The notes under the pieces were generated by a model. It did not search any database. It had not been told where the DNA came from and was given only the letters and a program-made list of their open reading frames with translations. Shown one piece after another: positions 8,869 to 21,206 of a DNA stretch of 32,000 bases. Made by a program: the position numbers and the translations under genes. This DNA is from Polynucleobacter sp. MWH-Aus1W21 (GTDB taxonomy: Bacteria > Pseudomonadota > Gammaproteobacteria > Burkholderiales > Burkholderiaceae), in assembly GCF_018687275.1 (NCBI RefSeq), contig NZ_CP061287.1, positions 1,880,212 through 1,912,211 on the forward strand, given 5' to 3'. The number at the start of each line of letters is the position of its first letter. The first letter of the stretch is position 1.

Positions 8869-9867
8869 ATGAAAAATGCAATTACCAACAAACAGCGTCG
8901 CCTAATGCTACATGGTTGCCTTGCAACAACATTAGCTACTTACTTAAGCGCCAGCTTTTCTCAATCAACTTGGCCACAAAAACCTATTCGCTTTATTGTG
9001 CCATTTGTCCCCGGGGGAACATCCGATATCGTTGCGCGTACGGTTGGTCAAGAACTTTCTCGTCAACTACCTTATCCAGTCATATTGGAAAATAAAGCTG
9101 GTGGTGGCGGTGTCCCAGCTATGCAAGAAGTTGCGAAATCTGCGCCAGATGGTTACACCATGATCCTGGGGCATGTTGGATCCATGGCGGTGAATCCCTA
9201 CATCTTTTCAAATACAGGATATGACGTTAATAAAGACTTTGCTCCAGTCACCCTGCTTGCTACAGTGCCCAGCTTATTTGTTGTAAATCCAGAATTGCCA
9301 GTTGAAAATCTCAAGGAACTCATAGCCTATGCCAAGAACAATCCTGGTAAATTAAATTACGGCTCTGCAGGCAACGCCAGCGCGGGACATCTCGCTATGG
9401 AATACCTTAAGCTGACTACCGGAATGGATATCACCCACATTCCTTACAAGGGAACCGGACCTGCATTAACCGATCTTCTGGCGGGCAGGATTCAAGTTTT
9501 TTCTGCTGGCACCCCCGCCCTATTGCAATACATTCGCTCAGGCAAGCTAAGGGCAATTGCAGTTGGTACACCCCAAAGAATTGCTTCTTTGCCAAACGTT
9601 CCAACTGTTGCGGAATCGGGCTATAAGGGATTTGAATCTGTTCAATGGTATGGAATCCTAGTTCCAGCAAAAACTCCCAAGAACATCATTAAACGCATTC
9701 AGGAGGAATCCTATAAGGCTCTCAGAACACCGGCAGTAGCAGAACGATTTGCAAGCGAAGATGCTGTTATAGGTGGAGGTCCCCCAGCGGAATTTGCTGC
9801 CTTAATAGCCCAACAACAACGCATTTGGAAAGAAGTTGTCTTAAAGGCTAATATTCGCGCCGATTGA
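8869..9867 (+). CDS. Bug-family (TctC-like) tripartite tricarboxylate transporter substrate-binding protein
   Basis: 332 aa with a signal peptide. Bug-family hallmarks are present: PIRFIVPFVPGGTSDIVAR, NYGSAGNASAGHLAME and VPYKG-like IPYKGTGPALTDLLAG. Confidence 0.9.
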   Translation: MKNAITNKQRRLMLHGCLATTLATYLSASFSQSTWPQKPIRFIVPFVPGGTSDIVARTVGQELSRQLPYPVILENKAGGGGVPAMQEVAKSAPDGYTMILGHVGSMAVNPYIFSNTGYDVNKDFAPVTLLATVPSLFVVNPELPVENLKELIAYAKNNPGKLNYGSAGNASAGHLAMEYLKLTTGMDITHIPYKGTGPALTDLLAGRIQVFSAGTPALLQYIRSGKLRAIAVGTPQRIASLPNVPTVAESGYKGFESVQWYGILVPAKTPKNIIKRIQEESYKALRTPAVAERFASEDAVIGGGPPAEFAALIAQQQRIWKEVVLKANIRAD

Positions 9868-9883
9868 GCGCCTGCATAAGAAA

Positions 9884-9910
9884 AGGGCTAGAAGATTCTC
9901 TTCTAGCCCT
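9884..9910 (+). terminator. Hairpin terminator between the Bug gene and the tRNA 3' end
   Basis: AGGGCTAGAAG-ATTCTC-TTCTAGCCCT followed by ATATTT. It lies 17 nt after the stop at 9867. Confidence 0.5.
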
Positions 9911-9915
9911 ATATT

Positions 9916-9992
9916 TGGTGGCGAATCAGGGATTTGAACCCCGGACCTGCGGATTATGATTCCGTCGCTCTAACCAGCTGAGCTAATTCGCC
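9916..9992 (-). tRNA. tRNA with CAT anticodon (elongator tRNA-Met, or tRNA-Ile2 if lysidine-modified)
   Basis: The reverse complement is GGCGAAT TA GCTC AGCTGGTTA GAGC G ACGGA ATCATAA TCCGC AGGTC CGGGG TTCAAAT CCCTG ATTCGCC ACCA. This is 77 nt, folds as a full cloverleaf and has an encoded CCA. A G1-C72 pair and the lack of GGG/CCC in the anticodon stem argue against an initiator tRNA. Confidence 0.9.
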
Positions 9993-10113
9993 GAACTCGG
10001 TATTTTAGCGTAATTTAGCCTAGAGAGCTATTTCAAGCCGTCTAAATTCTTCTTCCCATGAAAAACGGTGTTTTTACGGTAAATACGCGGTACACACCTT
10101 GTCTACAAAAATT

Positions 10114-10128
10114 GTCGTTTTAAACGAC
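10114..10128 (+). repeat. Palindrome copy 1, GTCGTTTTAAACGAC (left island border)
   Basis: Perfect 15-mer with a TT extension on the left (TTGTCG...). It is intergenic and ends 3 nt from the stop codon of ORF 10132..10560. Confidence 0.9.
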
Positions 10129-10131
10129 GGG

Positions 10132-10560
10132 TCAGGACGCAGAGATTTTTGTTTTATCTTCAGGTTTGTACTGGGTGCCACACTGCTCACATGATTTAAG
10201 GCTATTTCTCCAAATCGGTCCTTGCTGCTCAGATCCACACTTCTGACAAATCATCTTCCAGCCCTTTGTGATGCTCTTGATCTTATATTTGGCAAAGATT
10301 ATGAGGTTTGCAACAAGCGATAACTGTTGGGCATGCTCATATGAGCCCCAAGGGGAGCTGATTTGTCCGCCATTCTTATTTTGATTAATCCAATAATTTC
10401 TAGTTAATTTGCTAGTGTCATCAGACTCCTGAGCAAGGATATTTGTGGAATAAACGATTGTGTATTCCTTATTTGTATCCTCAAGCTCAATTTCTAAGTC
10501 TTTATTACTTAGATACTGCTCAACTTGCTTTCTGATTACATCGGAATTTTCAGAAGTCAT
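10132..10560 (-). CDS. Hypothetical protein with C-terminal zinc-ribbon (CxxC...CxxC)
   Basis: I prefer the ATG at 10560 (MTSENSD...), which forms an ATGA overlap with the stop of the upstream exonuclease gene and suggests translational coupling. The C-terminus carries CQKCGSEQQ...CEQCGTQY. Confidence 0.6.
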   Translation of the reverse strand: MTSENSDVIRKQVEQYLSNKDLEIELEDTNKEYTIVYSTNILAQESDDTSKLTRNYWINQNKNGGQISSPWGSYEHAQQLSLVANLIIFAKYKIKSITKGWKMICQKCGSEQQGPIWRNSLKSCEQCGTQYKPEDKTKISAS

Positions 10561-11450
10561 GTAGCAATCCCACACATTTTTATAAAGTCATTTTCAGTAA
10601 GAATTTCAATCTTAACCCCTTCTGCGATTAGTTCTTCAGCCTTTCGTTGCTTAGTACTTTTATCGTGCCCTGCAAGAGTTGTTAAGTCTTGAATTCCCAC
10701 CACCAAGTAATTAGTCTTCTTTGTTACGCTTGAGCCAATCTTAAATCCAAACTGACTAGCATGAGTTGCTGCCCCATCCCTAGTCATTGTCACCAGCGCA
10801 CCTGTGAAAACAATTATCTTGCCAAAAAATATACCCTCTTCTTTTGGTAGATAGTCTGATGCTTTAAAGCCATGATGAAATGGATGTGGATTTTCTATCT
10901 GATACTTAATTCCCCGTAATAAAACTTCTTTAGTTATTAAACAATCAGCGATAGCTCGATGAGCTCCCTCCACAGAAACATTGAGTTGTTGCGCGACTGT
11001 AGACAGCTTATGATTTTCCAATTCCGGGAAAGCTCTTCTTGCTAAAGCCAAGACATCCTTTAATGGACGATGTTCTTCTGTATGGTTATTTAAAAATTTA
11101 CTATCAAACCCTGCGTTATACGCCCATATCTGCAAGTCGCCAGCAAACTGAAAGAAAGCCTCTACAGCCTCTGGATTGCTGGGCGCACCTTCAAGCATTT
11201 CATCAGTAATTCCAGTTAGCTCAACGATAAAAGGATCCAACCTGTCGGGCTCCACATCACTATCTTCAATATCCTCATCTTCATCGTCAAAGAATCCGTA
11301 GACATCATCAGGCTTTGTAAGAGTCTGAAATTGATCTATTACTTCGCCAGTATCGAGATCTACTTTAATTGCTCCAATTTCAATAATTTGATCTCTACCA
11401 CTATCTAAGCCAGTAGTTTCTAGATCAACAATGATTGCGTAATTTGCCAT
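10557..11450 (-). CDS. DnaQ-like DEDDh 3'-5' exonuclease fused to a C-terminal BRCT domain
   Basis: Exo I is IIVDLETTGLD, Exo II is WAYNAGFDSKFL and Exo III is HRAIADC. The C-terminal segment KIIVFTGALVTMTRDGAATHASQFGFKIGSSVTKKTNYLVVG is BRCT-like. Confidence 0.85.
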   Translation of the reverse strand: MANYAIIVDLETTGLDSGRDQIIEIGAIKVDLDTGEVIDQFQTLTKPDDVYGFFDDEDEDIEDSDVEPDRLDPFIVELTGITDEMLEGAPSNPEAVEAFFQFAGDLQIWAYNAGFDSKFLNNHTEEHRPLKDVLALARRAFPELENHKLSTVAQQLNVSVEGAHRAIADCLITKEVLLRGIKYQIENPHPFHHGFKASDYLPKEEGIFFGKIIVFTGALVTMTRDGAATHASQFGFKIGSSVTKKTNYLVVGIQDLTTLAGHDKSTKQRKAEELIAEGVKIEILTENDFIKMCGIAT

Positions 11451-11542
11451 TCTTGAACTTTACTATAGGGCTAGAAAAAACAAAATCGGTCTTGCCCAAC
11501 CCTGCACACCGAAATTAAGCTATGTTTTTCAGCTAGAGAAAC

Positions 11543-12814
11543 ATGCCTAAAGAAACTGAGCTGCTCACCCTTTTCTTTCAAAGCACCCCCACCACTGAAA
11601 AATCCCCTCAGCTCAAATACCTAGAAAACCTAGCCACTGGCAAGCTAGTACATATGAGGGATGGCAACATCACTCTTTATAAGCGTGAACGAAGCAAACA
11701 GTGGCAAATGCGCTTTAGGCTATTTGATAAGAAGTGGCACAGAGTCAGCACTGGCTACGAAGATCTCGAATACGCCAAGAAGAAAGCTGGCGACATATAC
11801 GATAGAGCCCGCTTTATGGAAGAGCTGGGATTACCGCCGCTTAATAAACGCTTTGATTCAGCCGCAGAAGCAACTAAGGTAGAGCTACAAAGCGACCTGG
11901 ATAACGGGGTGGGTAAAAAGATCTATGTAGATTACATATCAGTAATCGACAACTATCTAATCCCGTTCTTTGGTAAGAAGCACCTGACTAGCATCAGCCA
12001 TCAAGATATTGCGGAATATGAAGTTTGGCGTAGCGAGAAGATGAAACGCAAACTCATGCAATCCACAATGATGACTCACTTCTCCGCTTACAACAGAGTA
12101 TTTGATTTAGCAATTAAAAGGGGTTGGCTCAGCGATAAGCATCCAGTTCCAAGGCTGGGCACTAAGGGCGAAAAGAGTAAGCCAAGACCTGCTTTCACAA
12201 GAAAGGAAATTGACTACTTATTAGAGTTTCTAAAAACATGGAGTGAAGGAGGCAAAACCGAGGAAGCGCATAACGGAAGACTACTTCTAAGAGATTACAT
12301 AGAAGTACTCCTAGCTACAGGAATGCGTCATGGCACAGAAGCATTCAATATTCAATGGCGACACTTAGAGTGGCATACAGACAAGAGCATTAGATACCTA
12401 CGAATATGGGTAAGTGGAAAAACGGGCCCACGCTGGCTTATAGCAAGGCATGAGGCAGTTCCAGTAATAGAGCGCCTAAAACAACGCTTTAAGGAATGGG
12501 ATCATTTAACGCTTGATCAATTACTGGAAGAAAAGCGTGAAGAATTCTTATGGCGCCATCCCAATGGTGAACGCCCATATGACTTTGTTAGTAGTTTTAA
12601 ATGGCTGATGAAAGACTCAGGGCTATTGCTTTCTACAACTGGTGCTAAGCGCACTTTGTACAGCTTTAGACACACCTACGCTACGTTTAGCTTAGTTGAA
12701 TGGGGCATGGATATTCACACGCTAGCAAAGCAAATGGGCACGTCTGTACAAATGCTAGAACGCTTTTATAGCAAGCTCACAGCCACATTAGCTGCGGAGA
12801 AGTTGGCGGGTTAA
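11543..12814 (+). CDS. Tyrosine-type site-specific integrase (Int-1)
   Basis: 423 aa. Catalytic signature: LLATGMRHGTEA (Arg), FRHTYAT (His-x-x-Arg), ERFYSK (Tyr). The N-terminus has an arm-binding-like beta region, ITLYKRERSKQWQMRFRL. It is a paralogue of 19130..20401. Confidence 0.9.
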   Translation: MPKETELLTLFFQSTPTTEKSPQLKYLENLATGKLVHMRDGNITLYKRERSKQWQMRFRLFDKKWHRVSTGYEDLEYAKKKAGDIYDRARFMEELGLPPLNKRFDSAAEATKVELQSDLDNGVGKKIYVDYISVIDNYLIPFFGKKHLTSISHQDIAEYEVWRSEKMKRKLMQSTMMTHFSAYNRVFDLAIKRGWLSDKHPVPRLGTKGEKSKPRPAFTRKEIDYLLEFLKTWSEGGKTEEAHNGRLLLRDYIEVLLATGMRHGTEAFNIQWRHLEWHTDKSIRYLRIWVSGKTGPRWLIARHEAVPVIERLKQRFKEWDHLTLDQLLEEKREEFLWRHPNGERPYDFVSSFKWLMKDSGLLLSTTGAKRTLYSFRHTYATFSLVEWGMDIHTLAKQMGTSVQMLERFYSKLTATLAAEKLAG

Positions 12815-12820
12815 AGATTT

Positions 12821-12835
12821 GTCGTTTTAAACGAC
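12821..12835 (+). repeat. Palindrome copy 2, GTCGTTTTAAACGAC
   Basis: Perfect 15-mer with a TT extension on the left. It begins 6 nt after the Int-1 stop codon. Confidence 0.9.
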
Positions 12836-12845
12836 TGCTAAACAT

Positions 12846-13178
12846 ATGAAACCTAGAAAACTTAAAACTACTTCGGTTGACTCACGCTGGTCTTGCTATG
12901 AGAGATTTGATCAAAGCCTACAAGACGCCATTAACAGTAACGAGAAAATACTGAGTATTGGGTACTTGAGCTATACCTGTGAGCACAAAACACATAAGCC
13001 CCTTAGTCATTCGCGCATCACCTGTAAAGCAATACATAGAAATCAAGGGTGCTCGTTATTGATTAAATTAACCAGAGTTTTAAATACAAACTCTGGCCTA
13101 CGTAAACAACAGAAATTCAATAGGCATGAGAAGAGAATCACAACAAAGTGGATGCCAAGATTAAAGACTCGGTATTGA
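12846..13178 (+). CDS. Hypothetical basic Cys/His-containing protein (weakly supported ORF)
   Basis: 110-aa ORF with no recognisable motif and no clear RBS. It is the only ORF on either strand in this interval. Confidence 0.3.
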   Translation: MKPRKLKTTSVDSRWSCYERFDQSLQDAINSNEKILSIGYLSYTCEHKTHKPLSHSRITCKAIHRNQGCSLLIKLTRVLNTNSGLRKQQKFNRHEKRITTKWMPRLKTRY

Positions 13179-13258
13179 TTTACGCATTACCTGTCAACCA
13201 GAAAATCTGTCAACCGTTAAAAACCATATCCCACAGATCAAACCGCGATTTTGAATCA

Positions 13259-13633
13259 TTAGAGCGGTTTGGGTGTCTCGCCTTTTAAGTAAGCCTGAAA
13301 CATTCTTTGCTCTTCTGGCGATCTCGTAGTGATGGTAGGTTGTGCTTTTAGCTTTGATGGAGCAATCGTTTTATATTGGGGTGCTGGCTTAGTTACAGTA
13401 GGCGGCGCTGGCCTTGCTTGCTGAGGTATTGGACTGGGCGTCGGCCTTTGCGGCAATTTCACTGCTTTGGGCTTTGGGGCTTTCGGAGCTTTGGCTTTGG
13501 GTTTGCTTGCTTCTGCCGCCTTTTGTTTAGCCTGGGCACTAGCTTGTTGGCTAATAGCACTCCAAGTGTTATTCATAATGATTCGCAGTAGCCCTAGTTG
13601 ATCTTCTGCATTGGCAATTTCGTACATTCTCAT
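13259..13633 (-). CDS. Hypothetical Pro/Lys/Ala-rich protein
   Basis: 124 aa. AGGAGA lies 5 nt upstream of the ATG. The central part is low-complexity (KPKAKAPKAPKPKAVKLPQRPTPSPIPQQARPAPP). Confidence 0.6.
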   Translation of the reverse strand: MRMYEIANAEDQLGLLRIIMNNTWSAISQQASAQAKQKAAEASKPKAKAPKAPKPKAVKLPQRPTPSPIPQQARPAPPTVTKPAPQYKTIAPSKLKAQPTITTRSPEEQRMFQAYLKGETPKPL

Positions 13634-13690
13634 ACGTTTCTCCTTTCCTTATATTTAGCGGGAACGTACGAGAAACTAGGGAATCGATAA

Positions 13691-13834
13691 CTAAACCTCC
13701 ATGGGCAAATGTACGATGTTCTCCACCCCATATTGCCCAATCAGTAAAAAGTAAGCGTCTTGCGAGCTACTTGCCATGATTCTTGTTTTGACGACGTAGC
13801 CATTAGCCCGTACGTAGGCTTCAAAAGTTTTCAT
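13691..13834 (-). CDS. Possible 47-aa small protein
   Basis: Translated by hand as MKTFEAYVRANGYVVKTRIMASSSQDAYFLLIGQYGVENIVHLPMEV*. It fills the gap between two co-oriented genes. It is below the ORF-track size cut-off and its RBS is weak. Confidence 0.3.
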   Translation of the reverse strand: MKTFEAYVRANGYVVKTRIMASSSQDAYFLLIGQYGVENIVHLPMEV

Positions 13835-13890
13835 TTAATCAATCCAAAGAAAAAGTGCTAACACTATGATTAGCATTAGCACTTGGTTAC

Positions 13891-14328
13891 TCACTTACCA
13901 AACCCTGCACGTACAGCGCCGCTAGCTTGCTCAATTTGTGTATCGAGCTCTCCGGCTTCTACTGCCCCCTTCACAATCTCAAGGGCTTTAATCAGCTCAT
14001 CAGCACTAGCAACCTCTACAGCAGACTTGCCTTTAGCAAATTCAATAACGCGACTTCCATAGCGGATGTTTAAGCAAACCTTGCCATCATTAGCAACAAA
14101 CCACCAGGGACGTACCCGCTTTTGATGCTCAATTGTTTTACGAGAACCATCAGCGTCTTTAATGCTTTTATATTTCTTAACGCTGTAAGTGCCACCTTCC
14201 TTTTGGGCTTTAGCTAATTGGATTTGCTCCCAGACTTTGTTGCCTAACTTATGACGGCGATGAAGGATGGGTGGAATTGCTGTTGGTTTTTTAGAATTAA
14301 CCAACTTCAAACTATTAAGTGCGCTCAT
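13891..14328 (-). CDS. Hypothetical protein of the kind common on mobile elements
   Basis: I prefer the second ATG (14328, MSALNSLK...) because AAGGAG lies 6 nt upstream of it. No catalytic motif was recognised. Confidence 0.65.
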   Translation of the reverse strand: MSALNSLKLVNSKKPTAIPPILHRRHKLGNKVWEQIQLAKAQKEGGTYSVKKYKSIKDADGSRKTIEHQKRVRPWWFVANDGKVCLNIRYGSRVIEFAKGKSAVEVASADELIKALEIVKGAVEAGELDTQIEQASGAVRAGFGK

Positions 14329-15337
14329 CGTTTTCTCCTTTGTATGAATGGGCACACTTAATTTATTGTCGGCCTTTTTGAAAGAGCAACCTCTTTATGC
14401 CAAAAGCCACATGAACCTAATAATCACATTCATTTCTACTCTTCTTTTATTAGGTTTAACTAAATAACTTTATAAATTACTACTGAAACAAGGGCAGTGA
14501 CACCCAGTCGTTATGTCACCCTAAAGCTGGACTTAGAGTCGCAGTCATGGAAATTCTGGGCAGTAGCAGAGACTTAGTATCACTATCCTTTACAGGACGT
14601 CATTAGAGTTGCTTACTAATTGATACAAGAATATTTCAGCACAAAGATTAAATGAATCACGAGCAAGCCCTGCTTACACAGCAACTTGCGAACAAGACAT
14701 TGGTAGCCACTTAATGCTGATGTCATTGTTGCGTTTTACGGCCGCACATAAAAGGAGACAGCAAAACCGCCCTTACCCAATTGGGTTGTGCCCTAAGTGG
14801 TGTAGTAAAGAACTCAGAGAAAGTCCTTTTCCTTATTTCTTCTCTATAACTGAGCCTGTTGCTTAAGGCTCAGTGTAGGTTGAATCTAGAGAAAGCCAAT
14901 ACAAACAATTTAAGAAGAAAGAAATGTGATGAGCGACAAGCGAAATCACAAGCGAGTGTTAGCTCGCTTACTACTAAGGGGGGTATAGGTAGAAAATCAC
15001 CACCCGAAAAGCTTCAGCTACCTATTAATTTTTCGTAGCCCAGAAATTTAATAGCTGTAGACCCATTCAGGGTAAATCCTTCGTTTAAGCGATGATTAGA
15101 AGCTTTCGCTTACTTGGGTAGCAGAACCCGAAATCAAACAGCTTGTAGGGCTTATAAATACTTCATGAAATATCGTGGCGAAAATGCCACGAAAACATAA
15201 TCTAATTAATAAAAGATTATGAAATCAGCTAAGTCTTTGAATTGTGGAAGGTTCTTTCTTAGCCATTTTCGGTTGCTCTCACCAAACATAAGAAAACATA
15301 CTGTAGCTCTGTATTTATTACATTTCAGGGAGAACGT

Positions 15338-15904
15338 ATGTCACAAGCTAGAGTTTTAAATCCACAAGAACTACGCAGAGTTTTAGATCACGTCGCTACA
15401 CGTAGGCACAGCGCACGTAATCGCGCTATGTTGCTACTTACACACTACGCGGGTATGCGAGTAGGTGAAGTTGCCGCACTACGTATAAACGACGTTTTAA
15501 ACAGCGACAACACAATTAAGGATGAAGTACGCTTAATGCCCGAGCAAACCAAGGGAAAGCATGCCCGTACTGTTTACTTAAATGAACGTATGCGCAAGGA
15601 AATTAGCCAGTATTTGCGAGTATTACGCATTAGAGATGCCAGCAAGCCTTTGTTCTACACACAGAAACAAGCAGGTTTCTCAGCTAACTCCCTAGCCCAG
15701 TACTTCTTTTACCTATATCGCAACGTAGGCTTAGATGGTGCGAGTAGTCATAGCGGAAGACGTAGCTTTCTAACTGGCCTTGCCAATAAAGGTACAGCTA
15801 TCCATATATTGAAGAGCCTAGCTGGACATAGAAACATCAGTACTACTGCTAGCTATCTATATTCAAGCCCAACACAGCTTAAAGCCGCTGTGGAGCTTGT
15901 TTAA
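15338..15904 (+). CDS. Small catalytic-domain-only tyrosine recombinase (FimB/FimE-sized)
   Basis: 188 aa. It carries AGMRVGEV (Arg), KGKHARTVYL (Lys hairpin), SSHSGRRSF (His-x-x-Arg), LAGHRNISTT (His) and ASYLY (Tyr). It has no N-terminal core-binding domain. GGGAGA RBS is present. Confidence 0.85.
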   Translation: MSQARVLNPQELRRVLDHVATRRHSARNRAMLLLTHYAGMRVGEVAALRINDVLNSDNTIKDEVRLMPEQTKGKHARTVYLNERMRKEISQYLRVLRIRDASKPLFYTQKQAGFSANSLAQYFFYLYRNVGLDGASSHSGRRSFLTGLANKGTAIHILKSLAGHRNISTTASYLYSSPTQLKAAVELV

Positions 15905-16243
15905 CTATTTCGCTATGTTGGTGACAACTTCGCCAACATAGTCTTGCTTTACTTCTGCTGAGACTAGCTGTACCAGCAACTTAATGCCCTTTTCCGATGG
16001 AAGCTTATGCCCAAACCAACAACAATAAACTTCCACTCTCTTTTTTCCAACCTTACCCAAGGGTAACTTCACAGAAGGCGCAAGAACAAAAGTTCCGCTG
16101 ACTTCAGCATTTCTATACATCGCATTAACAACTTTGATTACTCTGTCGGCTTTTACAGTTTTAAAGTTCCTTTCGGTTGCTGTAGAAGATAAGTCGGGAC
16201 ATTTTGCATCATTCCAAGCTGGTGCTTTTAGATAGAAATCCAT
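15905..16243 (-). CDS. Hypothetical protein
   Basis: 112 aa with a GGAGA RBS. It is convergent with the small recombinase gene and abuts it with no gap. Confidence 0.6.
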   Translation of the reverse strand: MDFYLKAPAWNDAKCPDLSSTATERNFKTVKADRVIKVVNAMYRNAEVSGTFVLAPSVKLPLGKVGKKRVEVYCCWFGHKLPSEKGIKLLVQLVSAEVKQDYVGEVVTNIAK

Positions 16244-16287
16244 AATTTCTCCACGCTTAGTTTAAGTTTTAACAGGATATCAAATTT

Positions 16288-16302
16288 GTCGTTTAAAACG
16301 AC
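16288..16302 (-). repeat. Palindrome copy 3 in opposite orientation (reads GTCGTTTAAAACGAC on +)
   Basis: Perfect 15-mer with a flipped centre (TTTAAAA). It is intergenic and ends 1 nt from the stop of ORF 16304..17047. Confidence 0.9.
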
Positions 16303-16303
16303 A

Positions 16304-17047
16304 CTATTTACTCAACGGAAACTTACCCAATCCGGCATTGGCAATCATCTTCTCTGCGTTAGTGATATATCGCTTTACGCTTGCGCCCATGACATTTCTA
16401 TAAACCTGTCGCTCGTTCATGCTCATGTTATCCGTTGTCATTGCGGAGGGTACCAAACGCATACTTTGCCCAATCTTCCAATAAGGAACTTTGGGAATTT
16501 GTCCTTTGTGCTTTAGATATTCATCGTAAACAGCTAAAGTAGTTTCTAGATTTCTAATAGTGTAATTTTTAGCAAGCGGGTACTTAGCAGAGCTTTCTTC
16601 GAATGTTTTGTACTGACGCCCTCTTTTAATTGTGTGTCTCTTGTTTAACAACGCATTAAATCGACTCTGTAAATATCTTTTACTAGATGTCAGCGGCATA
16701 GCCACTACAAGGACTTTATCGTCAGTCCACGATTTATTCCACTGTGCCTTATCTGTCAACTCCATTAGCACCATATCACCACCTTCCGATACATGCTTTT
16801 CAGAAAATAGCTCGACTCCTTTTTCCTTCCACCACTTCTTGAAGTTATCTTCTCGCACATCCCCAAAATCTTTATAGAGTTTTGCGTACTTGCCCTTGCC
16901 GCCATTCTCACAGCACTTTAAGTAATCCTCATTACGGCGCAAATAAACCCACCACCAGTAATAAGGGCTTCTGGTTTGAAGCGATATTTTTGCGGGCTTA
17001 TTTTTAGTTCCGAAATTAGGAGCGTCGGCGAGAAATCTTACTTTCAT
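16304..17047 (-). CDS. Hypothetical protein with an N-terminal W/Y-LRRN motif (tentatively DUF6499/DUF2285-type regulator-like)
   Basis: 247 aa. SPYYWWWVYLRRNEDYLKCC resembles the AWEFLRRNPxY motif of ICE-associated regulator-like proteins. This is recognised from memory and was not searched. Confidence 0.6.
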   Translation of the reverse strand: MKVRFLADAPNFGTKNKPAKISLQTRSPYYWWWVYLRRNEDYLKCCENGGKGKYAKLYKDFGDVREDNFKKWWKEKGVELFSEKHVSEGGDMVLMELTDKAQWNKSWTDDKVLVVAMPLTSSKRYLQSRFNALLNKRHTIKRGRQYKTFEESSAKYPLAKNYTIRNLETTLAVYDEYLKHKGQIPKVPYWKIGQSMRLVPSAMTTDNMSMNERQVYRNVMGASVKRYITNAEKMIANAGLGKFPLSK

Positions 17048-17186
17048 TTTCTTAACTTTTAAATAGCAGGATGTCTATTAGTGTATCAGAAAAAGTGCTA
17101 TGTAGCCTTAGTATCTATCTCATGGCAAGCGGTTAAATTCTTAACAAGCAACCATACTTTTAATACACATAGAAAGAGAGTTAATC

Positions 17187-17975
17187 ATGAATACATTAAC
17201 AACCGTAGTAGAAACAACAGCAACTAGCAACGTCGTTTTAAACGACAAACAAAAGAAGGCTCGTAAGGCTTCTATTGCTACTAATGCGTCAAAGCTTTTA
17301 GGGGCAATGGAAGAAAGCCGCATTACTTGGGAAGAAGGTGCGTACAGAACGAGCAATCAAGCGTTGTATCAAGTGCTAGCTCAGTGCTTACAGTTTTGCG
17401 GAGAGCTTTCAATTGGTGATGCTAAGGCTCGTTTAGTTGCGCTTGAGAAGTTTTATAAATCACGTAACTATAAGTACAACAAAACTAAGCCTTTAATCAC
17501 ACGAGTTATTCGCGCTGTATTCGGCGACATTGATAGACGTCGCTTGAGCACCTATTCAATTGTTTTACGAAAGGCTCAAAAGTTAAATGTGTCTTTCTCA
17601 GAACTTGCTGACTGGATTGAAAAGGAAGGCGGGGTTCAAGAAATTAAGTTGGGGCATAGTGAAACATTTGTAAGCGTTACAGATAAAGCTGAAATGGCAA
17701 AAGAGCATTTTGAAAAAATGAAGCCTCTTGGTAGCGCAAATTCAGAAATGCTTTCAATGGTGGCAGATGCTGATTTTATGGGTGACACCTGCGTACTGTT
17801 GGCGGAGCAAAACAGTCAGGGCGGCTTTGACGTTAAAGCTGTTCTTCGTAACGCAAGTCTTGTTAAAGCGGCATTTGCGGCTCTTTATGCGAAACAGCAA
17901 GAAATTACTGTTGAAGCAAAACGAGTTGTCGATGCGGCTAATGATGCCGAAGCGAAGTTAGCTAAAGCAGCCTAA
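17187..17975 (+). CDS. Hypothetical helical protein (first gene of a 3-gene + strand operon)
   Basis: 262 aa with an AAGAGAG RBS. Palindrome copy 4 occupies codons 16-20 (VVLND). Confidence 0.7.
   Translation: MNTLTTVVETTATSNVVLNDKQKKARKASIATNASKLLGAMEESRITWEEGAYRTSNQALYQVLAQCLQFCGELSIGDAKARLVALEKFYKSRNYKYNKTKPLITRVIRAVFGDIDRRRLSTYSIVLRKAQKLNVSFSELADWIEKEGGVQEIKLGHSETFVSVTDKAEMAKEHFEKMKPLGSANSEMLSMVADADFMGDTCVLLAEQNSQGGFDVKAVLRNASLVKAAFAALYAKQQEITVEAKRVVDAANDAEAKLAKAA
17232..17246 (+). repeat. Palindrome copy 4, GTCGTTTTAAACGAC (intragenic)
   Basis: Perfect 15-mer with an AA extension on the right. Its reverse complement shares 18 bp (TTTGTCGTTTAAAACGAC) with copy 3. Confidence 0.9.
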
Positions 17976-18030
17976 CTGACAGAATGGCGGCCTTATGCCG
18001 CCATTCCTTACCTATTGAAAGGAATTAAAA

Positions 18031-18693
18031 ATGAATAAGGAGAACCAAAATGCACCTCAAAATGTTTTTGACATCCACTACAGCAATCCTGAAAGTCGAT
18101 TACGAATCGAAGATATTGTCACAAATATCGAAGAGATACCTTCAAGCGGCAAATCAGGATTACTTCTTTACGGAGTCTATGGGACAGGAAAAACCACTCT
18201 CGCGAACTTGCTACCTGACGCAATCGAAAAAGGTAAAGCTGGCGTAGGCTTAAATAGCCCAGAAACCTTTATTGGCTGTCAGCAAGGATTCAATGGGCCA
18301 CAGGTAATGACGCTTATAGGCAATATCTTAAACGTCATGTCCTTTAACTCTAGCGGGCTTCACTACATCATCCTTGATGAAGTCGATAACTTAACCAAGT
18401 TAGCTCAGCAGAGTTTGAAATCAGCTATGAATACCCATAGGGCAGTTTTTATTCTGACAACCAACAACATATCTGAGCTTGATAAAGGTCTAAAAGATAG
18501 ATGCGTATTGATTGAAATGAATGCGGGCGCTCCTGAGGAGTATTTGCCATTAGCAAAAGAAATTGCCCAAAATAAAAATGTCTTTTTAAACGACGAAGTT
18601 TTATTAGAGGCTATTTCATTGGCAAATGGGTCATTTAGAAATCTTAATCATGGCCTCAAGCGGTTAGCTAGGCGGAAAGGAGTAGCGATATGA
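18031..18693 (+). CDS. Small AAA+ ATPase, clamp-loader (RFC/DnaX)-like
   Basis: 220 aa. Walker A is LLLYGVYGTGKTTLA, Walker B is HYIILDEVDNL and sensor-1 is FILTTNN. AAGGAA RBS is present. Confidence 0.85.
   Translation: MNKENQNAPQNVFDIHYSNPESRLRIEDIVTNIEEIPSSGKSGLLLYGVYGTGKTTLANLLPDAIEKGKAGVGLNSPETFIGCQQGFNGPQVMTLIGNILNVMSFNSSGLHYIILDEVDNLTKLAQQSLKSAMNTHRAVFILTTNNISELDKGLKDRCVLIEMNAGAPEEYLPLAKEIAQNKNVFLNDEVLLEAISLANGSFRNLNHGLKRLARRKGVAI
18580..18594 (+). repeat. Palindrome copy 5, degenerate (GTCTTTTTAAACGAC, 14/15), intragenic
   Basis: One mismatch at position 4. It lies in the AAA+ gene in codon phase 0 (VFLND). Confidence 0.7.
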
Positions 18694-19097
18694 AAAGTCG
18701 AGATATTCACCATGGCGTCTACATGGCACCATTTGGTTTATCAACCATTGTTATGGCAAGTCAGTCTAATCTTGAATGGCATATGAATAAATACCGCACC
18801 CAAAAAGATGAATCATTTTTGAAGGGCTTGCTTAAAAGACTTGAATATTCACTGCCTTTGGAAGACAAGTTTTTTGACTCTAATCCTCACCTAGCCGTAT
18901 CTAGCAATCAAAGGTGGAAGAATTTTTGTGATGATTGCGTAATTCTTGCGACCTTATCAGCATATTTAAATAATAGTAGAGTCGTGCTAATTCACCCTGA
19001 TTCATATAATCCTTCTGAAGGATTGAATACTCAATATGAAATGCCAAAGAAACGCCCAACTTTTATTGAGGGCATAGAAATTCAGCAACTCAATTAA
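18690..19097 (+). CDS. Hypothetical protein
   Basis: 135 aa. Its start forms an ATGA overlap with the AAA+ gene stop, suggesting translational coupling. Confidence 0.6.
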   Translation: MKSRDIHHGVYMAPFGLSTIVMASQSNLEWHMNKYRTQKDESFLKGLLKRLEYSLPLEDKFFDSNPHLAVSSNQRWKNFCDDCVILATLSAYLNNSRVVLIHPDSYNPSEGLNTQYEMPKKRPTFIEGIEIQQLN

Positions 19098-19104
19098 CTC
19101 TCTT

Positions 19105-19131
19105 TAAGCCCACTTTTTAGTGGGCTTTTTT
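19105..19131 (+). terminator. Rho-independent terminator of the 17187-19097 operon
   Basis: AAGCCCAC-TTTTTAG-TGGGCTT followed by TTTT. It lies 8 nt after the stop at 19097. Confidence 0.65.
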
Positions 19132-20401
19132 ACGCCAATTGCTCAGCCGCCATAGTGGGAGTCAGTTTTGAATAGTGCCTCTCAATCATGGCGGCACTAT
19201 TTCCCATTTGCTTAGCCAGCGTGTGAATATCCGTCTTATTCTCTAGTAGCTCTAATGTTGCGTAAGTATGTCGCAATGAGTACAAGGTACGCATTTGCCC
19301 ATCTTGACTCTTAGCTAGCCCACTGTCTCGCATGAGCTTCTTAAATGTCCCATCTATACGCAATGGCTGATGTCCGTCCGCCATTACAAATATCTTTTGA
19401 GGAGCACGAGATTCAAATAATCTATCAAATGGAATGTCATATACGGCCTTTTGACGACTGTGTAAACGCTTGAGAACATCAATCGCTCTATGCTTAGCAA
19501 TTAACCAACGCCCACCAGTCTTGCCATCTACCCATATACGCAAGTACTTTTTACCATTATTGGTATGCCATTCAATGTTATTCCAGCAAATATTTAATGC
19601 TTCAGTTCCATGCCGCATTCCAGTTAATAGAAGCATCTCAACGTAATCTCGCACTAATGGGCGAATCTCGCGCTCAATCTCTAAACGGCCCTCTTTAGCC
19701 CATTGCTCCATATAAGCAAGTAACTTATCAATCTCTTCACGACTAAATGCTGGGCGAGTTTTACCTTTGTGCCCTCGTGAAGTTAATTTTGGTATTGCTA
19801 CACGCTCACTAATCCAGCCTTTATTGACTGCTGTTTGCTGTAGCTTTGTCCAAGCACTAGAAAAGTTCATAAGGGTACTGGCTTTAGGCACTAAGCGCAT
19901 TTGTCTATTTCGCCAAATCTCAAACTCATGAACGTCTGTATAAGTTATTTCTTCTAACCGCTTGTCCTGAAAGTAGGGCAGGAAGTATTTCTCAATACAA
20001 GTGATATAGCTTAGATAAACACTCTTTCCTATACCTTCGCCCAAATCACGTCGCATTTCATAAAGAGTGGTGTGCGCTATTTCTGCGAACGTCGGAGCTT
20101 TTTGCGCAAGTCCTAAGCGCTGGCGAAATCTGGCTTCATCGTATAAGTCGCAGGCAACTCTGACGGCATGTTCAATTGATGCTTGCTTGGTTGAAACTCT
20201 ATCCCATGTGCTGTCATGTCGTTTAAAACGACATTGCCAGAGTGGGCTATTTGGCCTGCGGAAGATAACCACTTCACCGTCACGTAAAAGCAGCGATTGG
20301 GGTTCTGCGAAATGAAGCGTTGATAACTTGGGCTGATGATACTGAGGTGATGAGGGTAGAACTTCTAGATTTGTAAGCTTGGTGACTACGTCCTTAGACA
20401 T
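19130..20401 (-). CDS. Tyrosine-type site-specific integrase (Int-2), paralogue of Int-1 in inverted orientation
   Basis: 423 aa. It carries LLTGMRHGTEA, LRHTYAT and ERHYSK. It is collinear with Int-1 along its whole length (for example YLRIWV.GKTG.RWLIA.H). Palindrome copy 6 lies in codons 57-62 (CRFKRH). Confidence 0.9.
   Translation of the reverse strand: MSKDVVTKLTNLEVLPSSPQYHQPKLSTLHFAEPQSLLLRDGEVVIFRRPNSPLWQCRFKRHDSTWDRVSTKQASIEHAVRVACDLYDEARFRQRLGLAQKAPTFAEIAHTTLYEMRRDLGEGIGKSVYLSYITCIEKYFLPYFQDKRLEEITYTDVHEFEIWRNRQMRLVPKASTLMNFSSAWTKLQQTAVNKGWISERVAIPKLTSRGHKGKTRPAFSREEIDKLLAYMEQWAKEGRLEIEREIRPLVRDYVEMLLLTGMRHGTEALNICWNNIEWHTNNGKKYLRIWVDGKTGGRWLIAKHRAIDVLKRLHSRQKAVYDIPFDRLFESRAPQKIFVMADGHQPLRIDGTFKKLMRDSGLAKSQDGQMRTLYSLRHTYATLELLENKTDIHTLAKQMGNSAAMIERHYSKLTPTMAAEQLA
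20218..20232 (-). repeat. Palindrome copy 6 in opposite orientation (GTCGTTTAAAACGAC on +), inside Int-2
   Basis: Perfect 15-mer. The flanks extend the palindrome to 19 bp (ATGTCGTTTAAAACGACAT). Confidence 0.9.
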
Positions 20402-20465
20402 GAACTTGCTGTAGAAATTTTGAACTCATTCAGCAAGTTTATTTTCAGAGTTTTATTTGGACAAC

Positions 20466-20705
20466 CTAAATGGGTATATTTTTAAAAGATTCCTTATAGC
20501 CTTGTGCGCTTAATACCGTATCGTAAAGACCAACATCATCATCTTCGTGTTTATTAATTCCGACATAATTAAGGCCGGCATCTTCATAGCGCTTAAATTT
20601 ATAAACAGCATCATTCATTAACGGACCATTGAATATGCCAAGGCTAACTACCTGATCCACCGCCTTCTCAGGGTCCCAGTCATTTTGCATTTGTAGTGTT
20701 GTCAC
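20466..20705 (-). CDS. Hypothetical small acidic protein (start uncertain)
   Basis: 79-aa ORF from a GTG start. An ATG five codons in (MQNDWDP...) is an alternative. No motif was recognised. Confidence 0.4.
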   Translation of the reverse strand: MTTLQMQNDWDPEKAVDQVVSLGIFNGPLMNDAVYKFKRYEDAGLNYVGINKHEDDDVGLYDTVLSAQGYKESFKNIPI

Positions 20706-20786
20706 TTTTTCAGTTTTTAGGGAATGTGGATTGAAACGGGGGGATTACCTATTAATCCTCTGCACTATCAAAGAGCTTATTGAAGT

Positions 20787-20801
20787 GTCGTTTTAAACGA
20801 C
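20787..20801 (+). repeat. Palindrome copy 7, GTCGTTTTAAACGAC (right island border)
   Basis: Perfect 15-mer in the same orientation as copies 1 and 2. Sequence to its right is visibly more GC-rich. Confidence 0.9.
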
Positions 20802-20910
20802 AGCGCATGAATGGGGGGTGGCTGTTATGGAGTGAGAAGCGGTCACACAGAATCATTTATTGCTGGAGACAGAGAACGACCCGAAACAGTCATTTATAGA
20901 GATCTAAAAG

Positions 20911-20932
20911 AAAACCACCCGAAGGTGGTTTT
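20911..20932 (-). terminator. Hairpin terminator (bidirectional in appearance) at the distal end of the GC-rich operon
   Basis: AAAACCACC-CGAA-GGTGGTTTT. On the minus strand it is followed by CTTTTAG. Confidence 0.5.
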
Positions 20933-21003
20933 GGTGTTTCTTGGTGGTGGAGTATAGCACTACGCCAAACGCTCATCCCGCAGGAGTGAGGTATGCCGTC
21001 CTG

Positions 21004-21033
21004 AAAACGCCCCCCAATGAGGAATACGGGGCG
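21004..21033 (-). terminator. Candidate Rho-independent terminator about 175 nt downstream of the PIN-like gene
   Basis: The minus strand reads CGCCCC-loop-GGGGCG followed by TTTTCAGG. Confidence 0.45.
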
Positions 21034-21206
21034 AATCCAAGGACTTACTCCAACCACCTCACTGGTTCGGAAAATTACCGTCCAGTGCGTGTGTCGACTG
21101 CTTGCCCCAGCTGAGCTGGCGCTTGCTTGGGACCGATTGTATCCCCTTCTAGCGCATCTTGCCTCCGCCGATGGCCCTGCCCGAAAACCACTTCAGCGCT
21201 TGATGG

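Follow-up and report, generated by a model that had tools for sequence, protein, structure and literature searches.

The palindrome GTCGTTTWAAACGAC, found by motif scan in six perfect copies and one 14/15 copy in the window (the whole 32-kb stretch of Polynucleobacter DNA analyzed here), identifies an unannotated family of tRNA-integrating islands that is widespread in freshwater Burkholderiales. Judged from sequence comparison, the motif is most likely a site for an element-specific dimeric protein. On balance, we lean toward the fuller reading that GTCGTTTWAAACGAC is the core of a 17-bp dyad site for an element-specific homodimeric protein with both an accessory role on the att arms and an internal regulatory or architectural role.

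A palindrome confined to one segment of the window

The segment bearing the palindrome encodes three tyrosine recombinases (Int-1, a 188-aa enzyme, and Int-3), as the initial annotation had claimed. Its features are as follows.

9916..9992, minus strand: tRNA-Met(CAT); island-free contigs cease to match 3 nt past its 5′ end (9995/9996)
10132..11450, minus strand: zinc-ribbon protein (147 aa) and DnaQ-like exonuclease with BRCT (297 aa); left segment, absent from related core elements
11543..12814, plus strand: Int-1, 423-aa tyrosine integrase of the type found with tRNA-Met junctions (L014)
13259..14355, minus strand: basic protein of 124 aa and DUF6641 protein; the conserved core module starts here on the left
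14492..14627, plus strand: Polynucleobacter-1 RNA motif (RF01718), in a highly conserved noncoding stretch of about 1 kb (14356-15337)
15338..15904, plus strand: 188-aa tyrosine recombinase, catalytic domain only; the family's most conserved protein
16304..17047, minus strand: p247, 247-aa protein, candidate regulator with subthreshold Trans_reg_dom matches
17187..17975, plus strand: p262, 262-aa protein of a large uncharacterized family, candidate binder or initiator; site in the 5′ coding region
18031..19097, plus strand: 220-aa RFC/clamp-loader-like AAA+ ATPase and 135-aa ORF
19130..20401, minus strand: Int-3, 423-aa tyrosine integrase of the type found with tRNA-Phe 3′ junctions in relatives
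20404..20438: ACTTGCTGTA-N15-TWCAGCAAGT, a conserved 10-bp inverted repeat immediately 5′ of the int-3 ATG
20911..21058, minus strand: terminator hairpin (20911-20932) and structured RNA-like element (about 20943-21058) ending CCACCA

All seven copies of the palindrome reported in the initial annotation were recovered at the same positions.

10114..10128, copy 1: perfect, G-type; directly 3′ of the 147-aa gene stop; arm site, 121 nt from the tRNA-Met 5′ end
12821..12835, copy 2: perfect; Int-1 stop 6 nt before, as first reported, and ATG of a 110-aa ORF 11 nt after
16288..16302, copy 3: perfect, 17-bp palindrome at 16287-16303; between the p247 stop and the start of a 112-aa ORF
17232..17246, copy 4: perfect; codons 16-20 of the 262-aa gene, encoding VVLND
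18580..18594, copy 5: one mismatch (GTCTTTTTAAACGAC), hybrid half-sites GTCTTTT/GTCGTTT; within the 3′ part of the AAA+ gene
20218..20232, copy 6: perfect, 17-bp palindrome at 20217-20233; within int-3 codons ~57-62
20787..20801, copy 7: perfect, 17-bp palindrome at 20786-20802; terminal site, about 110 nt from the terminator and RNA-like gene at the GC shift

The earlier statements that the motif is absent from the other ~21 kb and cannot be due to chance were borne out: 0.06 matches were expected versus the 7 observed, none of 100 shuffles reached 14 strand-hits, and no further match with ≤2 mismatches was detected in the 32 kb. A weaker relative noted at 15491-15508 is present, but with a 3-nt insertion. 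Site density is approximately one per 1.5 to 2 kb. Among 2.9 million viral contigs, only 7 isolated copies and no clusters were found, which we judge to be about chance level.

The site was originally parsed as 4-bp arms around an asymmetric 7-bp spacer giving each copy a direction; this is not its natural parse. The motif is a perfect 8-1-8 dyad of 17 bp, T-GTCGTTT-W-AAACGAC-A, with GTCGTTTWAAACGAC as its 7-1-7 core, and the two "orientations" differ solely in the central base. Conservation is confined to these 17 bp: the flanking T/A outer positions are kept in 85% of half-sites, whereas the center is free and variability peaks at the central three positions. A symmetric variant, GTCCTTTWAAAGGAC (C-type), takes the place of the G-type, position for position, in four related loci (L002, L004, L011, and L030), and GTCGTGTWACACGAC is the variant in L015. 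Homotypic sites predominate (60 G-type, 20 C-type).

Site positions are conserved across the island family

With ≤1 mismatch allowed, the motif occurred in 14 of 16 related loci compared (from Polynucleobacter, Dechloromonas, and Oxalobacteraceae), mostly in several copies and at matching gene-relative positions; no copy was found outside the elements in these loci. The half-site GTCGTT is unchanged between Polynucleobacter and Dechloromonas. The position class of copy 3, between the 188-aa recombinase and p247, is retained in six loci (L001, L003, L008, L010, L012, and L030), that of copy 5 in three (L001, L010, and L012), and that of copy 6 in five (L001, L003, L005, L006, and L008).

Conservation at copy 4 extends to the protein. 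The peptide VVLND is present in 94/120 homologues of the 262-aa protein and is near-invariant amid a disordered, otherwise variable N terminus; VLLKD, the peptide given by the GTCCTTTWAAAGGAC variant in sister elements, accounts for 14/120, and VV(L/S/Q)ND recurs in distant members of the family (937 clusters). By these comparisons, the copy 4 site is a DNA-level constraint within coding sequence that fixes the peptide.

Across the elements, 74% of sites are intergenic versus 23% of the DNA. Intergenic sites are more frequent at convergent gene ends (n = 48) than in divergent promoter regions (n = 18), a distribution that would not be expected of a classical promoter operator.

Palindromes flank tRNA-fragment junctions and are absent from empty sites

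The junction repeats of the elements are tRNA-Phe 3′ and tRNA-Met 5′ fragments, and palindromes lie 30 to 210 nt from them, at fixed distances on both arms. In the tRNA-Phe type, a G-site is followed after ~30 nt by a tRNA-Phe 3′ fragment and a terminator, then after ~90 nt by a C-site and, 31 nt further on, by another G-site; the 46-bp pairing of G- and C-sites was seen 19 times, and the inner-arm G-site accompanies only about 10% of tRNA-Phe fragment copies. A tRNA-Met-type arm reads G-site, ~205 nt, tRNA-Met 5′ half, 80 to 125 nt, G-site. Copy 1 fits the latter pattern, and G-sites 80 to 125 nt from tRNA-Met 5′ halves were also present in L066, L088, L107 (twice), L114, and L119. Copy 7 is the counterpart of the outer G-site on the tRNA-Phe-type arm; the terminator hairpin at 20911-20932 is common to the tRNA-Phe junctions of relatives, and aligned elements lose homology shortly after TTGGACAACCT (20458-20468). 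Many other copies are kilobases away from the nearest junction, which distinguishes them from ordinary attP arm sites.

The initial annotation tied the motif to the recombination biology of the island and placed copies 1 and 7 on its borders. The first point stands, in that the outermost copies adjoin junctions, and the second holds in part. The DNA inserted relative to island-free contigs extends beyond 32000, so that copy 7 delimits a single element of an array and the insertion continues past it. We infer that the att core is located in the 5′ half of tRNA-Met. An empty site lacking any copy had been named beforehand as counting against a lox-like core, and the island-free contigs hold no copy of the palindrome.

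Under the reading we favor, the family consists of tandemly accreting, tRNA-integrating islands in Polynucleobacter and other freshwater Burkholderiales. Their crossover cores are the tRNA fragments, with the palindromes flanking the true integration sites at tRNA gene ends. The bound protein probably assists the integration/excision complex in an accessory or architectural role, as at arm-type, Xis, or ArgR-cer accessory sites. Internal copies, including those in the 5′ coding regions of the 262-aa gene and int and at most cargo-module gene boundaries, could make the same protein an element-wide regulator or organizer, in the manner of KorB operators or parS.

Alternative explanations for the palindrome

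The site was initially read as a lox/FRT/dif-like crossover core. On this account a tyrosine recombinase, most plausibly the 188-aa enzyme, cuts the sites to delete, invert, or shuffle segments, and the outermost copies are the island ends. Every element encodes the 188-aa recombinase, nearly every gene boundary in cargo stretches holds a site, and repeated junction units remain conserved precisely as far as the outer G-sites. Like dif, pdif, and attC, the sites are concentrated at 3′ ends and convergent junctions, and the central base provides a formal polarity. We nevertheless regard such a core as quite unlikely. It is unsupported because empty sites carry no copy, the junction repeats are tRNA fragments and not the palindrome, conservation ends with the 17 bp (only 8 bp per half-site), the breakpoints of identity between the window and L001 (~14230, 15870, 17990, and 19266) miss the sites at 17232, 18580, and 20218, and the small recombinase, 87 to 94% identical between G-type and C-type elements, has no residue that tracks site type. 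Moreover, sites occupy essential 5′ coding regions in different reading frames, such that recombination between them would destroy genes, and the 112-aa ORF indel adjoins a single site instead of being flanked by two. Very improbable, in our estimate, is a hairpin signal in RNA or single-stranded DNA, acting as a weak terminator, 3′-end stabilizer, processing or translation-control element, or replication/transfer hairpin. A 7-bp stem is predicted (−5.8 to −6.6 kcal/mol), the G/C variant is a compensatory pair of the kind a stem would show, the central three positions vary as a loop might, copies 1 and 3 score as terminator-like just past stop codons, and sites are in excess at gene 3′ ends. 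However, the stem is too weak for an intrinsic terminator, its sequence, beyond pairing, is invariant within an element, and some sites, on att arms or beyond true terminators, are in places that no transcript need cover. One-sided mismatches, exemplified by copy 5 in the window and in L001 and by four of the six sites in L008, broke pairing on both strands in 19 of 25 cases yet persist at conserved positions, which favors recognition of the duplex over a hairpin.

Dispersed operator or centromere-like sites, offered in the initial annotation as an alternative, come much closer to the evidence. In its pure form, this explanation holds that the palindromes are partition or condensation sites (parS- or matS-like) without a role in recombination or transcription, where a clamp-like or bridging protein, with the 262-aa protein together with the RFC-like AAA+ ATPase as the candidate, loads and segregates or compacts the excised, replicating element. 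The perfect palindromes are dispersed, confined to the element, and in some cases within genes; their density and permissive placement, mostly in spare intergenic DNA, are as expected, and the 262-aa/AAA+ operon is universal, with a site in its first 60 nt. Against this, no ParA/ParB/KorB-like domain or fold was detected, fixed spacing to att cores on both arms is unexpected for loading sites alone, and cargo-only modules that lack the operon still retain sites; we therefore consider a pure partition function unlikely. The retention of sites in cargo-only modules would equally suit a host factor, i.e., a chromosomal Burkholderiales regulator or nucleoid protein recruited as a recombination accessory, as cer recruits ArgR, and so would the constancy of the half-site between genera. 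Clean residue covariation with G/C site type was likewise found in none of the core proteins of the element, L011 breaking the pattern of the 262-aa protein. A host regulator should also have chromosomal targets, however, and the 21 kb of flanking chromosome, the empty-site contigs, and the DNA outside elements in related loci contain no copies. In one element lineage, all internal sites have switched to C-type within the same host genus, which points to an element-borne determinant and leaves a host factor distinctly improbable.

Candidate binding proteins and similarity to known systems

For the element-specific dimeric protein that we prefer, the candidates are the 262-aa protein, the 247-aa protein, DUF6641, and the integrase N-domain. 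Several observations speak against this preference: no core protein covaries cleanly with site type, intergenic sites are commoner at convergent gene ends than in divergent promoter regions, few tRNA-Phe fragment copies have the inner-arm G-site, many sites are far from a junction, and a hairpin stem would likewise show the compensatory G/C swap. Neither the 262-aa nor the 247-aa protein had a significant match in Pfam, PDB sequences, or a Foldseek search of the PDB; the 247-aa model, the only one run against BFVD, had no significant Foldseek match there.

KorB operators (OB) of the IncP-1 plasmid RK2 and parS sites are short palindromes in about 5 to 12 copies, read by a dimer for element-wide control or organization. 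The island sites resemble them as perfect palindromes dispersed on one mobile element, some within genes and some near or far from promoters. They differ in that neither a ParB/KorB-type HTH or CTPase nor a ParA partner was detected in the island, the island is integrated and not a plasmid, and its sites are also fixed on att arms and in excess at convergent gene ends. Looping repressors have internal operators, such as gal OI at +53 and lac O2. Similarly, copies 4 and 6 are palindromes in 5′ coding regions, at +45 in the 262-aa gene and at about +170 in int, respectively, but the half-site order is the reverse of that in LacI/GalR operators, many sites are far from promoters, and the island encodes no LacI-family protein. 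Known Int and Xis arm sites are nonpalindromic and confined to about 250 bp. As in attP intasomes (lambda Int/Xis/IHF; ArgR/PepA at cer), the island sites occupy both arms at fixed distance from the core, are absent from attB, and bound the outer limits of the conserved att region; in contrast, they are perfect dyads, mostly kilobases away and in part within coding regions. With loxP, FRT, dif, and pdif they share an inverted repeat about an AT-rich center, association with tyrosine recombinases, and placement at gene 3′ ends or module boundaries, but their arms are 8 bp instead of 11 to 13 bp, the center is symmetric, and the empty sites, junction repeats, and breakpoints differ as described above. 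The dispersal of parS sites is documented (PMC5961200).

Tycheposons of Prochlorococcus and additive flexible genomic islands of freshwater Methylophilaceae are described as tyrosine-recombinase elements at tRNA genes, including tRNA-Met (bioRxiv 10.1101/2020.12.28.424599; PMC10872708). They share with the islands tandem accretion with partial tRNA copies between units, niche-gene cargo, and some degenerate or cargo-only units (10.1101/2020.12.28.424599; PMC10872708). The string "palindrom" does not occur in the text of the tycheposon preprint (10.1101/2020.12.28.424599). The present islands differ from both in their core set, which comprises the 262-aa and 247-aa proteins, the RFC-like AAA+ ATPase, DUF6641, the 188-aa recombinase, and the Polynucleobacter-1 RNA.

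Sequence and symmetry of the site

A search of the 32 kb at up to two mismatches recovered the 15-mer GTCGTTTTAAACGAC at seven places (window positions 10114, 12821, 16288, 17232, 18580, 20218, and 20787; copies 1 to 7), with no further match elsewhere. Six copies are perfect and one, at 18580, carries a single mismatch, as listed in the initial annotation. That annotation also held that such a recurrence could not be due to chance, and dinucleotide-preserving shuffles bear this out (0.06 matches expected). Copy 2 does start 6 nt past the stop of Int-1, a 423-aa integrase, and three tyrosine recombinases are indeed encoded in the island. The proposed architecture of 4-bp arms around an asymmetric 7-bp spacer requires correction, since the 15-mer is a perfect 7-1-7 palindrome. 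The copies described as flipped, from which each site had been given a direction, differ by the central base alone.

When over 70 sites, drawn both from the window and from related loci, were pooled, the motif extended to an 8-1-8 dyad, T-GTCGTTT-W-AAACGAC-A (hereafter G-type), with the outer T/A present in 85% of half-sites and a mild A/T preference 2 to 3 bases outside the 17 bp, followed by background. Listing every perfect 7-1-7 palindrome in the related loci revealed a second form, the C-type GTCCTTTWAAAGGAC, which in four loci (L002, L004, L011, and L030) occupies the positions held by the G-type elsewhere; p262, a 262-aa island protein whose gene contains a site, reads VLLKD there. A third type, GTCGTGTWACACGAC, occurs in L015. 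In these variants the changes fall symmetrically, at positions 4 and 12. Most sites are homotypic (60 G-type and 20 C-type), hybrids such as copy 5 (GTCTTTT/GTCGTTT) are rare, and the internal sites of any one element share a single type. A switch coordinated at about five independent positions implies that the site has coevolved with whatever reads it, and we conclude that G-type and C-type are coevolving specificity classes, of which there are at least two. The 17-bp code is easy to search for, as TGTCGTTTWAAACGACA and TGTCCTTTWAAAGGACA, and marks a large unannotated island family.

The weak relative of the motif noted at 15491-15508 is also present. It is a degenerate site-like sequence inside the gene for a 188-aa tyrosine recombinase, where it supplies the codons for NDVLN(S)D, and the window copy is broken by 3 nt. 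At the same place in the recombinase gene of locus L014 (position 8155), the match to the site is 14/15.

The island family and its fixed site positions

In streamlined freshwater bacteria, Polynucleobacter among them, diversification proceeds mainly via islands beside tRNA genes. By its matches the window is Polynucleobacter-like, and its GC content dips between ~10.0 and 20.8 kb, then climbs to 0.48 to 0.53 beyond 21 kb. Its features are as follows.

Features of the window
Left of the motif region: RecA, a DUF2878 protein, and a TctC-family receptor
9916-9992, minus strand, left of the motif region: tRNA-Met(CAT)
Motif region: 147-aa protein with a zinc ribbon
Motif region: 297-aa protein, DnaQ-like exonuclease with BRCT
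Motif region: Int-1, 423 aa
Motif region: several small ORFs
Motif region: DUF6641 protein
14356-15337, motif region: ~1-kb noncoding stretch holding the Polynucleobacter-1 RNA
Motif region: 188-aa tyrosine recombinase, catalytic domain alone
Motif region: p247, 247 aa
Motif region: p262, 262 aa
Motif region: 220-aa AAA+ ATPase, RFC/clamp-loader-like
Motif region: Int-3, 423 aa
~20943-21058, minus strand, next to the terminator at 20911-20932: structured RNA-like element of ~115 nt
21207-31993, minus strand, right of the motif region: site-free, GC-richer block (0.47 to 0.53)

Scanning a genome collection with a p262 alignment yielded 16 related loci from Polynucleobacter, Dechloromonas, Oxalobacteraceae, and other Burkholderiales. 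Of these, 14 carried the motif with no more than one mismatch, most of them in several copies. The loci have in common a core module consisting of a 124-aa protein, DUF6641, the Polynucleobacter-1 RNA, the 188-aa recombinase, p247, p262, the AAA+ ATPase, and an integrase, and the sites keep the same positions relative to these core genes.

Conserved site positions across related loci
Past the DUF6641 stop
Gap between the 188-aa recombinase and p247
p262, codons 16-20
AAA+ gene, 3′ part
Gap between the AAA+ operon and the int stop
int, codons ~57-62, or ~75 bp upstream of int
Close to the ends of the element

The site within p262 encodes VVLND, which is invariant or nearly so although the surrounding N terminus is unconserved and predicted to be disordered. 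VVLND was found in 94 of 120 p262 homologues, and VV(L/S/Q)ND is often kept in distant members. Its fixation within an otherwise variable N terminus reflects selection on the DNA, acting through the coding region. Freshwater metagenomes and Polynucleobacter genomes are rich in homologues of p262 and p247, every one of them annotated as hypothetical; in a profile search, the p262 family comprised 937 clusters at 50% identity.

Rfam places the Polynucleobacter-1 RNA (RF01718) at 14492-14627 on the plus strand of the window. It was detected in all seven related loci tested (L001, 7700-7835; L003, 527-662; L004, 7058-7196; L005, 7218-7355; L006, 7690-7825; L008, 7314-7450; L009, 7308-7443), always between DUF6641 and the 188-aa recombinase and on the recombinase strand. 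The ~1 kb of noncoding DNA around it is the best-conserved part of the element (97 to 100% identity to L001). The island family, of which it is a fixed part, thus provides a genomic context for this orphan Rfam motif. Pairing of the RNA with the palindrome was considered and rejected, as a reading of the RNA found no motif-like sequence within it.

With a tyrosine integrase beside a tRNA gene, partial tRNA copies between tandem units, and niche cargo, the element resembles tycheposons and additive flexible islands. The sources describe these as tRNA-targeting tyrosine-recombinase elements with tandem accretion, partial tRNAs, and niche cargo (bioRxiv 10.1101/2020.12.28.424599; PMC10872708), and the genomic phenomenon here matches them. 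The string "palindrom" does not appear in the tycheposon preprint (bioRxiv 10.1101/2020.12.28.424599), and a full-text literature search with the motif strings returned no match.

Attachment junctions

In empty-site contigs encoding an identical TctC protein, tRNA-Met is followed directly by an FAA-hydrolase gene, and the homology of the window to these contigs stops 3 nt past the tRNA-Met 5′ end. The FAA-hydrolase gene is absent from the window; the inserted DNA therefore runs beyond the 32 kb. The window island shows no flanking direct repeats besides the motif itself, the far end of the inserted DNA lying outside the window, and the window contains neither a second tRNA-Met copy nor a second copy of the 3′ end of the RNA-like gene. 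In relatives, a 22- to 25-nt tRNA-Phe 3′ fragment with a terminator is repeated many times per island, and a full tRNA-Phe adjoins the element in L012 and L015. Halves of tRNA-Met, from the 5′ side, are repeated at junctions in L107, a metagenome locus, and at least six others (L088, L114, L119, L118, L041, and L014). Judged from these sequences, the direct repeats expected of att cores are the tRNA-Phe 3′ and tRNA-Met 5′ fragments, not the palindrome. A terminator hairpin, AAAACCACCCGAAGGTGGTTTT followed by ..TTCTTGGTGG (window 20911-20947), also occurs many times per island in L001 to L006 and in metagenome loci. It is usually joined to tRNA-Phe 3′ fragments, and the two together resemble scars left by recurrent integration events.

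Scanning metagenomes for the 17-mer returned at least 120 contigs, from samples whose names look mostly freshwater. Among the matches listed, 44 contigs carry core genes and the rest are cargo stretches with up to five sites. At junctions of the tRNA-Phe type, neighboring G-type and C-type sites lie exactly 46 bp apart (at least 19 cases), separated by a conserved 31-bp spacer (ATCGACTGACGCAGGGATG..TAATTGA..). Conservation continues for ~55 to 130 nt past the C-site, as far as the terminator and either a tRNA-Phe gene or a fragment of one, and similarity ends entirely beyond the G-site. Some of these junctions (L002, L003, L044, and L053) have an extra G-site ~30 nt off, on the other side of the fragment. 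At junctions of the tRNA-Met type, a G-site lies 80 to 125 nt beyond the tRNA 5′ end (at least seven cases, including window copy 1), with a second G-site 187 to 211 nt away on the opposite side in at least five cases; in L107, homology between both copies of the junction begins and ends exactly at the G-sites. Lying at set distances on either side of the tRNA cores, the sites bracket the att regions on both arms, an arrangement resembling the arm-type or accessory sites around lambda attP.

Copy 7 stands to the terminator at 20911-20932 as the sites do in tRNA-Phe junctions, the terminator being common to both. The adjacent RNA-like element is strongly structured (minimum free energy, -58.8 kcal/mol; z = -4.5) and has an acceptor-like stem ending in CCACCA; neither ARAGORN nor Rfam recognized it. 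It occupies the place of tRNA-Phe in relatives and so may serve as a tRNA-like target for integration. At the other border, the island abuts the tRNA-Met 5′ end and 5′-half fragments recur at junctions, so that the att core of Int-1-type elements apparently lies in the 5′ half. Such an element would thus supply a new upstream region to tRNA-Met, a polarity unusual for tRNA-targeting islands. These data place the attachment regions at the tRNA-Phe 3′ end and the tRNA-Met 5′ half.

Class of the site

The site is element specific, dyad symmetric, and positionally conserved; it flanks the genuine att cores on each arm, and attB has no copy. The initial annotation had read it as a crossover site of the lox, FRT, or dif kind. 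Tyrosine-recombinase core sites consist of two inverted arms of ~9 to 13 bp around a 6- to 8-bp overlap, and a crossover site should be found as one copy at attB, recur as the direct repeats at junctions, and contain the breakpoints. Instead, the empty sites lack a copy (island-free contigs L017 to L019 contain no motif at up to three mismatches), the junction repeats are tRNA fragments, and conservation spans just 17 bp (8 per half), falling near background beyond ±1 in more than 70 sites. Breakpoints also lie off the sites. Between the window and its closest relative, L001 (a single pair), blocks of ~100% identity alternate with blocks of 55 to 85%, and the breakpoints at ~14230, 15870, 17990, and 19266 miss the sites at 17232, 18580, and 20218. 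Moreover, p262 and int each carry a site early in the coding sequence, in different frames, so recombination between these sites would destroy both genes; as the frames differ, inversion between copies 4 and 6 was also rejected as a source of in-frame gene fusion. The crossover reading is therefore not upheld, whereas the observation on which it was built stands and the alternative offered with it, dispersed operator- or centromere-like sites, proves broadly right.

Sites of the KorB OB, parS, and matS class are short perfect dyads, dispersed inside and outside genes and restricted to one replicon, element, or domain. The palindrome likewise occurs in multiple dispersed, element-restricted copies inside and outside genes, but Pfam, NCBIfam, and PHROGs searches detected no ParB/KorB-family or other recognizable HTH protein encoded nearby. 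Like attP arm or accessory sites, it is placed at a set distance from the crossover core on each arm and is missing from attB. Such sites are confined to an att region of a few hundred base pairs, whereas most copies here are internal, kilobases from the junctions. In this comparison, the site resembles a cross between attP arm sites and dispersed palindromes of the KorB/parS type, and departs from each in one defining feature. Integron attC sites, acted on by the integrase IntI, are imperfect palindromes of 57 to 141 bp with R″/L″-L′/R′ boxes at cassette 3′ ends; the 188-aa protein scored far below the cut-off of the integron-integrase model, and the site is 17 bp without extended structure. 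REP, BIME, and MITE-type repeats are genome-wide extragenic palindromes associated with a RAYT-type transposase, and we found no motif outside islands in ~21 kb of the window and the flanks of the loci, nor any HUH/RAYT gene. A phage link was dismissed, as viral contigs hold just seven isolated copies, judged to be about chance level. We know of no fit among the consensus sequences for LexA, the LacI/GalR family, Fis, the ARG box, TyrR, and KorA/KorB.

The palindrome might also act as a hairpin rather than as duplex DNA. The 7-bp stem can fold (-5.8 kcal/mol), and the G/C swap between types is compensatory. Against this, 19 of 25 single stem mismatches abolish pairing on both strands and are still kept at conserved positions, and each element fixes the stem sequence itself, beyond mere pairing. 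Together these features favor duplex recognition by a dimer that tolerates one weak half-site.

Sites in cargo DNA

With crude ORF calls, 74% of the sites among the matches listed are intergenic, versus 23% of the DNA.

Location of intergenic sites
Tandem junctions: at least 90
Convergent ends: at least 48
Divergent promoter regions: at least 18

In cargo stretches, again among the matches listed, a site stands at nearly every gene boundary. The excess at convergent ends, together with kilobase-scale dispersal, fits a density function like that of KorB, parS, or matS sites better than a classical promoter operator. The cargo itself consists of ordinary accessory genes (OmpA family, FGE-sulfatase, Na+/H+ antiporter, TonB-C domain protein, and MerR-fused cytosine methylase). 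In L107, a module at 6359-11791 that carries the OmpA-family and Na+/H+ antiporter genes, without integrase or core genes, lies between two nearly identical att-like junctions, each composed of a G-site, a tRNA-Met 5′ half (at 6578 and 11641), and a G-site. Its sequence suggests that cargo-only units retain the same cis sites and thus may be nonautonomous units mobilized in trans.

Candidate binding proteins

Searches of Pfam, NCBIfam, PHROGs, PDB profiles, and Foldseek detected no relative of known function or fold for p262 or p247. Across the other island proteins, the profile searches were informative for the integrases, the DnaQ-like exonuclease, the RFC-like AAA+ ATPase, and DUF6641 only. 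AlphaFold2 models (pLDDT, 67 for p262 and 87 for p247) had no significant Foldseek match in PDB, nor did the p247 model in BFVD. None of 10 distant p262-family members tested contained a Pfam domain. In four p247 members, only subthreshold matches to the proteobacterial transcriptional-regulator-like Trans_reg_dom (PF20109) were obtained. No additional small HTH gene recurs near sites.

Covariation with site type was no more discriminating, as no protein compared had a clean discriminating residue. The p262 proteins of C-type elements form a clade with three type-specific residues, L011 being an exception. Type-specific columns in p247, Int, and DUF6641 may be phylogenetic signal. Those of Int fall in the C-terminal half alone; its N-terminal 180 residues have no type-specific residue in a small sample (three versus five elements), and arms carry G-type as well as C-type sites. 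Type-specific columns are lacking from the AAA+ ATPase and from the 188-aa recombinase. The recombinase is 87 to 94% identical between G-type and C-type elements, with no residue tracking type, a further point against the crossover reading.

Proposed mechanism

We propose that a homodimeric protein, probably element encoded, would bind the sites. On the arms, it would assist the 423-aa integrases in an accessory or architectural role; the Int-3 type of these would use tRNA-Phe and the Int-1 type tRNA-Met (L014). At internal sites it would regulate or organize the element; those in p262 and int would resemble an internal operator, with further sites at most cargo gene boundaries. The binder, if found, would represent a new DNA-binding family and make island regulation and mobilization directly testable in organisms that are hard to study. 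Rival readings, each considered unlikely, are a lox-like crossover, a hairpin signal, sites for partition alone, and recognition by a host factor.

A bolder reading, which we consider rather unlikely, is that the palindromes form an island-wide address code. A core-encoded dimeric bridging protein, for which the uncharacterized p262 family with its RFC-like AAA+ partner would be the candidate, would bind every copy, drawing the internal sites and every att-junction arm together in a single nucleoprotein domain. A single autonomous element could then regulate, excise, and mobilize the neighboring cargo-only modules of a tandem array, and switches between G-type and C-type would create incompatible island lineages that had lost cross-mobilization. 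If true, streamlined freshwater bacteria would be organizing and partitioning their flexible gene pool in a manner not described before.

Other features of the window

A 10-bp inverted repeat, ACTTGCTGTA-N15-T(A/T)CAGCAAGT, lies at 20404-20438, directly upstream of the int-3 start codon. The ACTTGCTGTA repeat could be aligned in all nine loci compared, most clearly in five, and may represent a further, distinct operator or a site related to Int. The 9-mer CTCGGTATT occurs at 9996-10004, the exact left junction with the chromosome, and at 13168-13176, where the Int-1 segment meets the conserved core module; the pair may be a short direct repeat or may be due to chance. The block at 21207-31993, which is also missing from the island-free contigs, encodes a PIN_12 protein, a staphylococcal-nuclease homologue, a Sel1-repeat protein, an IetA-like AAA ATPase, an HSP70-like protein, and several unknowns, and may be a defense island.
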